Shown here in pieces: positions 1 to 56,866 of a stretch of DNA of 64,000 nucleotides. The DNA is taken from assembly GCF_963921235.1 (NCBI RefSeq), contig NC_086097.1:112842001-112906000 (forward strand), in the 5' to 3' direction. How positions within the stretch are numbered: position 1 is the stretch's first letter; each line of letters opens with the position of its first letter. The notes beneath the pieces are model-generated. The model was given only the letters and a program-made list of their open reading frames with translations. It was not told where the DNA came from and did not search any database. The DNA is from Mobula hypostoma. Lineage: Eukaryota. A program made the position numbers and the translations under genes.

Positions 1-499
1 AGCATTAAGACTACCCTTTAAGAGAGTGCTGTATTTTCTATGTCACATGCCAAGGCCATACTATGTTACAGTTTGCAAACAATGAAATTAATCCTCTTTT
101 TAAGAAAAGTTATACACTGTCTTCGCTTGCAATCATACCCTCAATACTGTAAGATCGAATTCTCACAGGAAAACAATAGTACTTCTGCAGATAAAATGCC
201 AGCATAATTCAAACATCATCTGGTAGTTAAGATTGAACATTAAAATGGTAATGAGATCAAGACCTTTAAAATTTGTAATGAGCTCAATACAGATTTTAAA
301 TTTATTGTTTTCAATTCCTACAGAGCCTTAGAGTATAATCTGATTAGTTCCTTTTATTTGTGTAAACGGTATTCTAACTTTTTAAATTTCTATCAATGCC
401 ATTTTAATACATCAAATAAGGGTTTATTTTTCAGGGATGGGAAATTTGAAACGAGACTTATACTGTCTTCTGCAATTACATGAGAAGTGATTTACTCAC

Positions 500-624
500 C
501 CAAGGTTGCTTAGTGCTCGTTCAAAGAACTCATTTTGGAGAAGGATGTCATGTTGGTTTGAGAAAACATTATTTAAACTGGTTAAAACAGAACTGCAGAA
601 CTGACGCAGTGCTTCAAACTGCAT
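500..624 (-). CDS. RIMS2: Alternative first coding exon of RIMS2 (RIM2-beta-type N-terminus), 41 codons + 2 nt
   Basis: The minus strand reads ATG(624) MQFEALRQFCSSVLTSLNNVFSNQHDILLQNEFFERALSNL-GG|GTGAGT. This closely resembles the mammalian RIM2-beta leader as I recall it (MQFETLRQVCNSVLSHFHGVFSSPPNILQNELFGQTLNNAR). The donor is phase 2, the same as the upstream RIMS2 exon. Confidence 0.88.
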
Positions 625-2832: not shown

Positions 2833-3799
2833 TCAGTAATTTTCCACTATCACTAAGCCCTCCGCTATCCTGATGATCTGCTCACCTGTACAATGTATCA
2901 TCGGCAGATATTTTCCACAGCAAGGGAAGGAGACAAATTCTTTGCATGTAATACGCAAAACAAAGGTGCGACAGGAACTTTCTGAAGTGCTAACATCCCT
3001 TGAGGGATGGTTTCTATTTTGGACACTCCTAGCTTGCCATTTGGGACAGCGCGTGCGCGCGCACATACATCTATAATTCATTCCTGTTGAGGTATTGTTC
3101 CATAATGAACATATTTGTTGATTAAGTTCAAAGTCTATCACAAAAACACACCGTTTAGCTAATGTCTCATGTATTTATTTAAACAGTCAGTGCAAGAATA
3201 TGATGACTTACTGCAAGCTGCCCCCTTCACATCCACGCATTACTCTGTCATAAACATTCTACTCCATCTATGTCTTGAAGATGACTTTGCACCTTATTGT
3301 CTACCTGCACTGCATTTCCTCTGTAACTGTAACACTCTATTCTGCAATCTGTTATTGTTTTCCCTCGTGCCACCTCAGTGCACTGTTGTATTGAATGGAT
3401 CTGTATGAGCAGTATGAAAGTTCATCGCTGTACCTCGGTACAAATGATAACAATTTACAAATTCTGACAATATGTTTACTCTGAGTACATTGAATATAGA
3501 TACCCTCGAGTGACAAACAGTCAAACAGTTAATAAATCAGAACTCTAAGGCACGGTTAATATATTAACTTGAGAGCAAGGCTGAGGGTTCATGACAATAG
3601 CAGGAAGACAAAAGAGACTGCTGATCGAAAACACTTACTCCACAAATGCTGCTTGAACCATTGAATCTTTCTAGTGTTCTTTTACTGTGTTGAAGATTCA
3701 TATTTTTATTACATAGGAGGAGGCCATTTGGCCTATCAATGGCAGATATCCATACAATCCCATTGAACCCATTCCATTACATATTTCACTGCAACCATC

Positions 3800-6700
3800 A
3801 TGTTCCATAAGACGTAGAAGCAGAGTTAGGCCCATTTAGCCCATTGCCTCTGCTCTGCTAATCCTTTTTGGCTGATCCATTCTCCTGGCATCTTCCTGCA
3901 ACCTTTGTCGCCCTGACTTATCAAGAACCTATCAAACCTCTGCTTTAAGGATGCAGAGGAGATTTACAAGGATGTTGCCTGGATTGGGGAGCATGCCTTT
4001 TGAGAATAGGTTGAGTGAACTCGGCTTTTTCTCCTTGGAGTGACAGAGGATGAGAGGTGACCTGATAGAGGTGTATAAGATGATTAGAGGCATTGATCGT
4101 GTGGATAGTCAGAGGTTTTTTCCCCAGGGCTGAAATGGTTGCCACAAGAGGACACAGGTTTAAGGTGCTGGGGACTAGGTACAGAGGAGATGTCAGGGGC
4201 AAGTTTTTACTTGGAGAGTGGTGATTGCGTGGAATGGGCTGCTGGCAACGGTGGTGGAGGCGGATACGATAGGGTCTTTTAAGAGACTTTTGGATAGGTA
4301 CATGGAGCTTAGAAAAATAGACGGCTATAGGTAAGCCTAGTAATTTCTAAGGTAGGGACATGTTCGGCACAACTTTGTGGGCCGAAGGGCTTGTACTGTG
4401 CTGTAGCTTTTTTATGTTTCTATGTTTCTATTTAAATATACTCAATGACTTGGCCTCCACAGCCACCTGTGGCAATGAATTCCACAGATACACTACCCTC
4501 TGGCTAAAGAAATTCCTCCTCATCTCTGTTCTAAATGGACATTACTCTATTCTGAAGCTGTGCCCTCTGGTCCTAGACTTACCCACTATAGGAAACATCC
4601 TGTCCACATCCACGCTATCTAGGCCTTACAATATTTTATTGGTTTCAATGAGATCCCCTCTCATTCTTCTACACTTCAGCGAGTATAGGCCCAGAGCCAT
4701 CAAACGCTCCTCGTATATTAACCCTTTCATTCCTGCAATTATTCTCCTCTGGACCCTCTCCAAAGCCAGAGCATCTTTTCCTCAATAAGGGTTTCAAACT
4801 GCTCACAATGCTCCAAGTGTGGTCTGACCAATGTCTTATAAAGTCTCAGCATCATATCCTTACTCCTATATTCTAGTCCTCTCAAAATGAATGCTAAACT
4901 TGCATTTGCCTTACTTACCACCAACTCAAACTACAAGACAACCTTTAGGGAATCCTGCACGAGTCCCTTTGCACCTCTGATTTTTGATTTATCTCCCTGT
5001 TTAGAAAATAGTCTATGCTTTTATTCCTTTTTCCACAGTGCATGACCACTCACTTCCCGACAGTGTATTCCATCTGCTACTCCTCTGCTCATTCTCCAAA
5101 TCTGGCTAAGTTCTTATTTCCTCAACACTGCCTACCCCTCCAGTTATCTTTGTATCATCTGTAAACTTGGCCGTTAATTTCATCATCCAAATCATTGACA
5201 CATAATATGAAAAGTAGTGGTCCCGATACTGAACCCTACAGAGCATCACGAATCACCAGCAGCCAATCAGATTAGGGCCCTTTATTCCCACTCTTTGCCT
5301 CCTGCCAGTCAGCCAACCCTCTATGCATGCTAGTTAGTATCTTTCCTTTAATACTATGGGCTCTTGTCTTGTTAAGCAACCTCATGTGCGATACCTTGAC
5401 AAAGGCTTTCTGAAACCCAAGTAAACAACATTCACTGTCTATCCTGTCCATTATTTCTTCAAAGAATTCCAACAGATTTGTCAAGCAAGATTTCTCCTTA
5501 AATAAACCGTGCTGGGATCCTGTACCAACCTGATTTTGCCAATATGCCTGCAGATTAAAATCCGCCAGGACTATCATATCATTGCCATTATTACATGCCT
5601 TTCTATCTCTGCTTGTAAATTGAAGCACACATCCTGGCTACTGTTCAGAAACCTGTATATAACTCCCATCAGGGTCTTTTTACCCTTGCAGTTCCTTAAC
5701 TCTACCCACAAGGATTCTATATCTTCCAATCCTATGTCACCTCCTTCTAAGGATTTGATTTCATTATTTACCAACAGAGTATCCCACCTCCCTCTGCCTA
5801 CCTGCCTGTTCTTTCAATACAATGTGTATCCTTGGATGTTAAGCTCCCAGTTATGATCTTCTTTTACCCATGACTCAGTGATGCCCACAACATCAAATCT
5901 CTAATTGTGCTACAAAATGATCTACTCTATACACTGCATGCATTCAAAACATAGCACCTTCCGTCCTGTATTCATCAACCTTTTTAATTTAGCCCTGATG
6001 TTACACTCCAACTCATCTCACTGACTATCATTTGCCTGTCCTTCCTCACAGTCTCAACTATGCAATGCATCAACTTGTACACTAACTGCCCTATCGTCAG
6101 CACTATCACTCTGGTTCCCATCCCCCTGCAAATAAGTTTAAACCTTCCCCAACAGATATGAAAAACTTGCCCACAAGGATATTGGTCCCCCTCCATTTAG
6201 GTGTAACCCGTACTTTTTGTACGGGTCATACCTTCCCCAGAAGAGATCCCATTGATCCAGAAATCTGAAACCCTTCCCCCTGCACCACTTCCTCAGCCGC
6301 TCCATCTGTCTATCATTCTATTCCTGCCCTGACTAGCACATGGTACAGGGTGTAATCCAGAGATTACTACCTTGGAGATCCTGCTCCTCATCCTCTCTCC
6401 TAACTCCCTATATTCACTACGCAGGACCTCCTCCCCCTTTCTACTGATGTTATTGGTGTTAATGTGCACCATGACCTCTGGCTGCTCACCCTCCCGTCTG
6501 AAAACTTTCTGCAACCATCTTGGCCCTAACACCTGGTAAGCAATACATGATTCTGGTCTCTCTTTTGCAGCCACAGAATCCCCTAACTATTAAATCTCCT
6601 ATCACTATCCCTCTGCCCGAATTTACTCTTCCCTGCTGAGCGTCAGAGCCGGACAAAGAACCACTGACCTGGATGCAGCTGGTGTACCCTGGGAGGTCAT

Positions 6701-40549: not shown

Positions 40550-41455
40550 TTCATACTTTGGTAGAGTAGAGCTACTAGGACTTGATGTTTCAATCCCTAT
40601 GGTAAGTTGGCACTCTCGATGTTGGCAATGGGCTTGGAGTGGTGACAAAGAGGGAGGGTAGGTACGTCATCGGGGTCATCAGGTGGGCACCCTCCTTCTT
40701 TGATGTTTCATTGATAACCCACGACGTCTCCAGAGGGCTCAACGCTGTTACCTGGTGTCCCAGATGCATCCCCCTCAGTTCCATATCCTCCTGTCTTCAT
40801 CTTGCAGCCCAGTTGTTGTCTTTCCTTTTAATCCAAATCCAATTGCTGCTTTCTTCTGCTGCGTTTGACAAGGACTTGATTGCTTGTTGGAGGGAGTGAC
40901 CCCTCACCCCCATCTTCTTCAATAGACTGGTCGTAGATGTAGCAATGAATCCCCTGCATCCCACTTCTACAGGGAAAATCTTGGTCTTCCAGCCATTCTG
41001 GGCAGCTTCAATTGCCAGTTCAGAGTACTTGGTCTTTTTCCTCTCATAAGCTTCTTCGACACCATCTTCCCATGGTACTGTCAATTCCACAACATATGCC
41101 AGCTTGGCTGTTGTGGACCACAGGACCATGTCTGGCCGGAGTGTTGTAGCCGCAATGTCTGGGGGAAACACAAGCTTTTTTTTCCCAAGTCCACGTCCAT
41201 TTTCCAATCCCGAGCAACCTGCAGAATGCTTACATCTTTTGATGTTATATGGTGCTCTGGAGGTTGGCCTGCTGGTACAAATCGTGTGATGTGGACATTT
41301 CCTGCCGATGTTTGTGGGAGAGCATTTGTGGTGATTCACCTCTGTTCCAAGATTGATGCCAGCTGTCTGAGAACTTGGTTATGCCGCCAAGTGTACCACC
41401 CCTGGGTGAGGCTCGTGGTGCATCCTGTTAAAATGTGCCTTAGTGATCCAGGTGT
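40550..41455 (-). mobile_element. HERO-clade (R2 superfamily, RLE) non-LTR retrotransposon 3' end, copy A
   Basis: HILTGC..QGWYTWRHNQVL (CCHC tail) and TTLRPDMVLWS..VELTVPWE..ERKKTKY..GW..FPVEVGCRGF (PD-(D/E)xK restriction-like endonuclease). Stop at 40797. Confidence 0.88.
40668..40738 (-). ncRNA. Permuted (pseudoknotted) hammerhead-like motif in the HERO 3' UTR, copy A
   Basis: GCCCTCT-GGA-GACGTC^-GTGGGT-TATCAAT-GAAACATC-AAAGAA-GGAGGGT-GCCCAC-CTGATGA-CCCCGATG. Confidence 0.7.
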
Positions 41456-56362: not shown

Positions 56363-56866
56363 TTAACATTAAGATTGGAGTGCAGAGACAGAGGGTGGGA
56401 GGTCTCAAGCTATCCATTCGAAGTAGGCTGCCGTGGGTTTATTGCGTTCACTTTCCAGAAGTGGCTGCGTGACCTTGGCTTCACTAGAAGAGAGATCAGT
56501 CATCCAGCAGGGCTTTAGCTGAGGCAGCAGAGAAAGGATCAGCACAGGTGTGGACCAAGTATGTCCAGAGGGGCAGATAGTCAGACAGTGTATACATATC
56601 TCGCAAGCCCTTCAGTAGCTGCATAGACACCTGAAGAGCAGGCTATCTGTTGGATGGAAGTGACCAACAACTCTGATAGAGGCAGATGCCAAGTTTTTAA
56701 GCTCACCAGTGGGAGGTGGTGCTTTAGCACTGCTGGTCCACCACCTCGAGGGAGTCTTGATCATAAGCGGGCCGAAACTCCTGAAGACAGGTGGCAGATC
56801 AACTGATGATCCCATTGGTGATAGCACAGAACAGTTAACATCTTAGTCCGTGTATTTTTTAACTCT
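56363..56866 (+). mobile_element. HERO-clade retrotransposon extreme 3' end, copy B (divergent family), nested in CR1
   Basis: LRLECRDRGWEVSSYPFEVGCRGFIAFTFQKWLRDLG..AEAAEKGSAQVW matches the RLE C-terminus of copy A. CR1 resumes at TATGAGGAA. Confidence 0.8.
56741..56813 (+). ncRNA. Permuted (pseudoknotted) hammerhead-like motif in the HERO 3' UTR, copy B
   Basis: CCACCT-CGAG-GGAGTC^-TTGATC-ATAAGCGGGCC-GAAACTCC-TGAAGAC-AGGTGG-CA-GATCAA-CTGATGA-TCCC. Confidence 0.75.

Follow-up and report, generated by a model that had tools for sequence, protein, structure and literature searches.

Six permutations of the hammerhead ribozyme were considered by Eckert et al. (2023; PMC10085705), with CUGAnGA and its neighbouring paired bases assumed to run uninterrupted. 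In the part of that paper available to us, type-SGC hammerheads (HRIMA-1 and variants) carry the cleavage block, the GAAA block and CUGANGA in that order, pseudoknot helices I and III, place an extra helix outside the core, and are assumed to run straight from CUGANGA into helix II. Cleavage was shown for type SGC, and, one GCS candidate excepted, the paper reports none from the genome of a known organism. Variants of the hammerhead that carry extra helices are also on record (one of PMC13725137, PMC10162972, PMC4640811, PMC5678591, PMC7650587, PMC3088659). Among mobile elements, LTR and non-LTR retrozymes were described, in the available part of Cervera and de la Pena (2020; PMC7229834), as non-autonomous elements of 170-1000 nt with classical type I or III hammerheads in tandem; the monomers so released become circles, from which reverse transcription is proposed to make tandem copies. 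The available part of PMC6765202 covers two further systems. Penelope-like elements are autonomous and partially tandem, have a proposed circular intermediate, belong to a different reverse transcriptase (RT) lineage, and carry minimal type I hammerheads, acting as dimers, in their repeated part (pseudo-LTRs). R2, an RLE-type LINE, carries a 5' HDV-like ribozyme able to free the element from a host transcript; this ribozyme sets a fixed 5' end, the template is linear, and insertion is at a specific target (PMC6765202).

The window (the whole stretch of DNA that was analysed, 64,000 nt) contains the 3' part of a HERO-like LINE, with a hammerhead-type motif in its 3' UTR (Table 1). In the boldest reading it would belong to a whole lineage of autonomous animal LINEs that replicate via a viroid-like circular RNA, with a hammerhead core split by a four-way junction and bent by a kink-turn, an RT that rolls from internal priming, and no true ends; a rough probability of 55% is given to this reading. 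As in type SGC, the same core bases come in the order cleavage block, GAAA block, CUGANGA, helices I and III are pseudoknotted, and an extra helix (D) lies outside the core. Unlike in type SGC, helix II is upstream and helices X and Y follow A9, D joins helix III through a kink-turn signature, the motif is found in animal LINEs, and cleavage is predicted from sequence. The motif is, as a candidate, a new variant of the hammerhead class, with a wiring unlike the published SGC type. Retrozymes are non-autonomous and without an ORF, whereas this element of ~3.9 kb is autonomous and encodes an RT and a restriction-like endonuclease. Autonomy, a partial tandem layout, a hammerhead in the repeated part and a proposed circular intermediate are shared with Penelope-like elements, while RT lineage and hammerhead type differ; the endonuclease of Penelope-like elements is of the GIY-YIG type, also differing from the one here. 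With R2 it shares the RLE-type machinery and a (predicted) self-cleaving RNA that could free an element carried in a host transcript; unlike in R2, the ribozyme is in the 3' UTR, there is no fixed 5' end, and flanks are unrelated. A literature search, excluding Repbase, most subscription papers and the supplements to PMC10085705, returned no report of a hammerhead or a circular template in HERO elements. If true, the wiring would be one that the 2023 permutation scheme assumed away, and non-circular permutations would move from unassigned metatranscriptomes to vertebrate genomes, in hundreds to thousands of copies missed by Rfam. A LINE with an R2-like protein would prime internally on a circle, as against the standard free RNA 3' end, with consequences for how LINE evolution is seen and for gene insertion tools of the R2 type.

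Table 1. Features located in the window, with partner strands and the condition of each.
Feature	Position	Strand	Remarks
RIM2-beta-type first coding exon, RIMS2	499..624	-	93% identical to a skate RIMS2 isoform (residues 1-42)
HERO-like RLE LINE copy, family A, 5'-truncated	40561..41454	-	Short CTACT-type slippage tail
ORF C-terminus remnant (partial CCHC knuckle and restriction-like endonuclease)	40797..41454	-	Stop 40799-40797
Helix X, 5' strand	40771..40774	-	Partner 40675-40672, directly after A9
Hairpin Y	40744..40770	-	Separates X from II; two mismatches from decay
Helix II, 5' strand (10.1-10.5)	40739..40743	-	Partner 40714-40710; upstream of cleavage block
Distal helix D, 5' strand	40732..40738	-	Partner 40695-40689
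Kink-turn signature, non-bulged strand	40729..40731	-	GA adjoining helix III; partner 3-nt bulge and GA, 40701-40697
Helix III, 5' strand, with U16.1 and C17	40723..40728	-	Predicted cut 3' of C40723
Helix I, 5' strand	40717..40722	-	Partner 40688-40683; one base lost relative to family majority
Block G: helix II 3' strand, G12-A13-A14, helix III 3' strand	40702..40714	-	Two CpG-type changes
3' strands of helix D and helix I, CUGAUGA core (40682-40676), helix X 3' strand	40672..40695	-
Copy B, second family (B), 5'-truncated	56369..56865	+	Motif 56703-56821

The family A copy corresponds to the last ~890 nt of a ~3.87 kb unit; it aligned with positions 2976-3865 of a near-full-length copy at 94.7% identity, and the 3' ends of 60 loci aligned to it. 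Its ORF remnant changes frame near 41180, as judged by eye. Copy B has the same wiring, with a predicted cut 3' of C56756 and the core at 56803-56809. A DNA search of the 3.5 Gb genome returned, at first look, 1546 candidate copies of family A and 1577 of family B, and exact matches numbered 535 (family A, 19-mer) and 727 (family B, 17-mer). Long copies were about 3.85 kb and encoded an RT, a CCHC knuckle and a C-terminal restriction-like endonuclease. Pfam RVT_1 scored above the cut-off in both families and zf-RVT below it; the C-terminal piece had no match in Pfam, and the endonuclease motif and C-terminal reading were assigned by eye. A single ORF with these three parts, 5' truncations and a simple tail are the traits of RLE-type non-LTR elements. 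The element is called HERO-like, a provisional label that follows the initial annotation and the C-terminal motif. Among aligned copies the flanks were unrelated, in keeping with the mostly non-specific insertion of HERO elements noted in the available part of PMC4640811.

Relatives of the element were present in teleosts and lancelet, and none was found in the viral contigs searched. A third, older family (L276-L280) in the same genome has a decayed motif. One HERO-like fragment that carries the motif (L175) comes from a bacterial MAG; it is probably host DNA, as are, probably, the proteins labelled Vibrio among the relatives. Two diverged elements (L117 and L119, 68% identical) lie head to tail on one contig, 3.7 kb apart. 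A 3817-nt contig (L141) ends in a 34-nt exact repeat of a near-start stretch, as a circular or tandem unit would assemble. In the window itself, a long CA/CT simple-repeat tract (989-2401) gives three spurious open frames.

The full motif spans 40672-40774. The initial annotation had proposed a permuted hammerhead at 40668..40738, about 60 nt past the stop codon; the distance was confirmed, and helix D, helix III with its one mismatch, C17 at 40723, helix I and CUGAUGA were all found on the minus strand where it had put them. The proposed extent was too short, since helix II, hairpin Y, helix X and the kink-turn signature had been missed. The permutation stood as regards the S-G-C order of the blocks; the partner of helix II is upstream, so the published SGC wiring was not borne out. 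What holds is a non-circularly permuted hammerhead-type fold that covaries from one element family to another and is predicted to cut 3' of C40723. The helix III pairing (40728-40724/40706-40702) contains one C.A mismatch, which had been ascribed to CpG decay, rightly so, as family-majority copies pair perfectly there.

The wiring obtained by covariation was X5'-Y-II5'-D5'-III-cut-I-II3'-GAAA-III'-D3'-I'-CUGANGA-X3', with the block order S-G-C. The helix II strand before GAAA pairs mostly 20-22 nt upstream of the cut, beginning with G10.1-C11.1; the bases after A9 pair farther upstream (X), and hairpin Y lies between X and II. A9 and 10.1 are not chain neighbours, helices X and Y being inserted between them, and the literature search found no tested precedent for a core split at this point. 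In most families no linker base separates X, Y and II, and a four-way junction may form in which X would stack on Y and helix II on the core. Helix X has only 4 bp in family A, including this copy, and at least 10 bp in many other families; in family A and close relatives, with an X of only 3-4 bp, the junction of X and Y is less well defined.

Scans with the Rfam hammerhead families (types I-III, HH9 and HH10) gave no match in the 64-kb window (E up to 10) or in 18 loci (E up to 0.5). A loose GAAAC..CTGATGA pattern matched the window twice against 0.35 expected, and 5/100 shuffles reached two matches; by itself this pattern is weak, near chance. A descriptor with helices I, II and III, written after the two copies were known, picked out exactly these two in the window, against an average of 0.01 in resampled windows (1 match in 100). 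Pairing was analysed in related loci, 80 from metagenome contigs (the best 80 of 164) and one from genome contigs. Full parses were obtained for 43 of the 81; 10 had <330 nt downstream, 15 were judged decayed by eye, and 13 were motif-less despite sufficient sequence, so some lineages do without the motif. With 38 sequences aligned blind to structure, pairing reached 95.5% across helix I, helix III and C3-G8. The covariation score of this alignment was 0.69 against 0.17 for shuffled alignments (0/500) and at most 0.14 for slid ones. Both sides had changed in 9/10 pairs (6/6 in helix I), counts which relatedness inflates.

Partner swaps (10000) among 23 non-redundant sequences of <75% identity gave the same picture for each helix, no swap reaching the observed pairing: 5.65 vs 1.46 bp for helix I (0/10000), 4.87 vs 2.95 bp for helix III (0/10000), 4.78 vs 2.95 bp for helix II with its upstream partner (0/10000), and 7.30 vs 3.73 bp for helix X (0/10000). 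The partners of helices II and X were located by best-match search, for which the swaps are the sole control. An SGC-type helix II, between the bases after CUGANGA and the strand before GAAA, was rejected, since it averaged 0.13 bp and swapped partners gave 0.14. A standard hammerhead of type SGC, in which helix II follows CUGANGA, would share the S-G-C block order (PMC10085705, available part), and the loose pattern would suit a chance arrangement; given the absent SGC-type helix II and the rarity of the full descriptor, both are assigned a negligible probability. A conserved hammerhead-type fold is held with high confidence. The initial annotation had also pointed to covariation within the window and to copy B in the same arrangement; copy B was found as described and the helices do covary. 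Each copy is a member of its own high-copy family (about 1,500 candidates at first look in either case), so what the covariation records is selection acting on the retrotransposon, not on these loci.

Two clusters of relatives (L153, L155, L166, L167, L171, L172; and L122, L126, L138, L143) are motif-less, and no Rfam ribozyme was found in those of their members that were scanned. In a quick tree of 116 columns, which shows nothing further, the motif-less rows clustered. These clusters are natural controls for the circle model.

The bases of the hammerhead core were present (CUGANGA, GAAA, and UH with H not G), as were helices I, II and III with R10.1-Y11.1, and G-C or G.U was found at 10.1-11.1 in 37/38 rows. 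Position 17 was C in 19, U in 17, A in 10 and G in none of 46 parsed sequences, and N7 was free. The 3-8 pair was C3-G8 in 35 of 38 sequences, U3-A8 in two, which are related to each other, and U3.G8 in one; the swap from C3-G8 to U3-A8 is known from active natural hammerheads (PMC3088659, available part). We infer catalysis from H17, the free N7 and the 3-8 swap because these are active-site constraints, and intact copies probably self-cleave.

The kink-turn consensus runs from a canonical helix through a 3-nt bulge and tandem G.A and A.G to a second helix. A signature of this kind, recognised at sequence level, joins III to D in 32/38 aligned and 18/23 non-redundant sequences; it had no Rfam match. 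Four loci (L130, L140, L142, L149) have the split-core wiring without the kink-turn signature, and L142 is very compact.

In the family A copy every core base is intact; damage is seen as a G.U at 10.1-11.1, the C.A of helix III, a pair of mismatches in hairpin Y and the loss of one base, and its motif differs from the family majority at 8 positions (mean of copies, 5.6). Core and helices were intact in only 7/30 family A copies chosen by their ORF. The minimum-energy (best nested) fold of this copy is a rival hairpin, in which the cleavage block pairs with the 3' tail; this hairpin is strong (-14.4 kcal/mol) in family A and its close relatives alone. A conserved off-switch was rejected as the meaning of this hairpin (-6.73 vs -6.76 kcal/mol in swaps, p=0.53). 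The mutation rate of the motif among copies was not lowered (2.4%, vs 1.6% before and 3.1% after it). This copy is a truncated, neutrally decaying product, probably without function, and with its single, damaged ribozyme it cannot give a circle.

No RIMS2 coding exon other than that at 499..624 turned up in the window; the RIMS2 matches suggest a cartilaginous fish as the host. The RIM2a zinc-finger exon lies ~31 kb past the window end, also on the minus strand. If both exons are one gene, the copy is placed in sense within an intron of the alpha form of RIMS2, in agreement with its first reading as part of the pre-mRNA intron (exons at 624-499 and ~31 kb past the window, both minus). A protein atlas search with the RIMS2 exon gave no match, and no FYVE_2 was found near the window. 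Retention of this copy by the host, to cut the RIMS2 intron, would fit the sense orientation and the intact core bases. It is most improbable given the excess of differences from the family majority, the damage in II, III and Y, a competing hairpin that is favoured, and hundreds of equivalent copies on both strands. A role of the copy in RIMS2 or in pre-mRNA cleavage appears unlikely because of the CpG damage and the competing hairpin.

Cleavage within the 3' UTR would remove the end used for priming, but the copies run unbroken across the site, which poses a puzzle as to the template. A search with the unit start gave 30 loci per family. In family A, 27 copies reached the unit start and 25 of them ran on into their own 3' end, for 30 to >1500 nt, 22/25 junctions being without an indel; in family B, 18/20 start-reaching copies did so (43/47 for both families). 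The same continuation was seen in 7/64 loci of other organisms that have at least 400 nt downstream. A repeat long enough to hold a second ribozyme was present in about half of the long copies. Alleles were compared between paired repeats at 18 loci: they were shared at 12/12 for a 30:30 site (2 further loci gapped), and derived changes were shared 36 times vs 21.9 (p=0.0004), or 19 vs 9.9 without CpG sites; allele sharing depends partly on loci L198 and L200. After the apparent 3' end, the next base was the unit-start base (G) in 24/52 copies (p about 1e-4). Targeted insertion ahead of older copies was rejected, as flanks of ordinary copies are unrelated and paired repeats share alleles.

Nearly all copies crossed the cut site without gained or lost bases, and no pile-up of copies was found at the predicted cut (0/535 in family A, 1/727 in family B). 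Patterns for truncation at the cut, with a sensitivity of roughly half of such cases, gave 4 matches in family A, all intact upstream, and 1 true case in family B; the control position gave 1. A fixed 5' end was rejected both at the cut and at the conserved start motif, with no pile-up at either. Repeats began 5' of the cut in 14/25 copies of family A and 11/18 of family B. A ribozyme that merely frees a linear RNA from a host co-transcript, making its 5' end in the HDV-like manner of R2 and with no circle, would follow the role known for ribozymes in R2 and other elements (PMC6765202, available part), and many copies do stand in tandem with an upstream ribozyme. Such release predicts repeats that stop at the cut, whereas 25/43 pass it and 0/43 begin there, and the downstream ribozyme would also remove the priming end; we consider it very unlikely.

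An endless template explains the layout, the allele sharing, the absence of a stop at the cut and the run-on from the 3' end. The fold is predicted to self-cleave and may well let the element be reverse-transcribed from circular RNA, and a covalent circle is the template that we somewhat favour. For the circular template, a genomic copy preceded by its own tail repeat would be transcribed from a host or internal promoter, giving an RNA with two ribozymes. Both would cut, and the ends of the resulting unit-length RNA would be joined at the cut site, either by the ribozyme itself or by a ligase of the host. Reverse transcription, primed from the target, would begin internally, at the apparent 3' end, and then cross the sealed site; the RT may go more than once round the circle and so rebuild the tail repeat ahead of the new copy. 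Since roughly one long copy in two has a repeat of second-ribozyme size, the cycle might sustain itself. Comparable cycles have been described for retrozymes and put forward for Penelope-like elements (PMC7229834, PMC6765202).

The head-to-tail copies are also compatible with read-through of a tandem master or with precise template jumping. Jumping between templates is a property of R2-type enzymes, and a ribozyme that cuts without sealing could leave a nicked circle, held by helices X, II, D and III, which all bridge the cut after cleavage, with the RT jumping the nick. A deletion of 9 nt spans the predicted cut site in one copy out of 30 (L071), which would fit such a jump; nearly all others show no added or lost base there, the cut is not a stop point, and a nicked circle is judged unlikely. 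About equally doubtful is a hammerhead-like fold that cleaves rarely or not at all and binds the element protein, the tail repeats then coming from tandem-master read-through or from a jump in which the RT leaves the 5' end of the RNA and resumes at the 3' end of that RNA. In R2, structures of the 3' UTR act in template selection; each inserted copy here is continuous across the site, and the split core is without precedent in the literature consulted. That fold would leave unexplained the exclusion of G17, the free N7 and the 3-8 swap as active-site constraints, and also the lack of a fixed 5' end, the precise junctions and the private changes common to repeats in different subfamilies.

Four contig sets were aligned to a full-length copy and cover was seen, of a kind (contigs) that cannot show ends or circles. 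The first ~110 nt past the junction show DNA conservation of 72-88% between distant families (L092:3219-3330; and, downstream of the motif, L098, L101, L104, L119, L120, L137 and L141); on a circle this stretch would come immediately on the 3' side of the priming site, where it might serve as an internal promoter or as a signal bound by protein. The upstream repeats of two loci (L177, L187) end in a 5' inversion.
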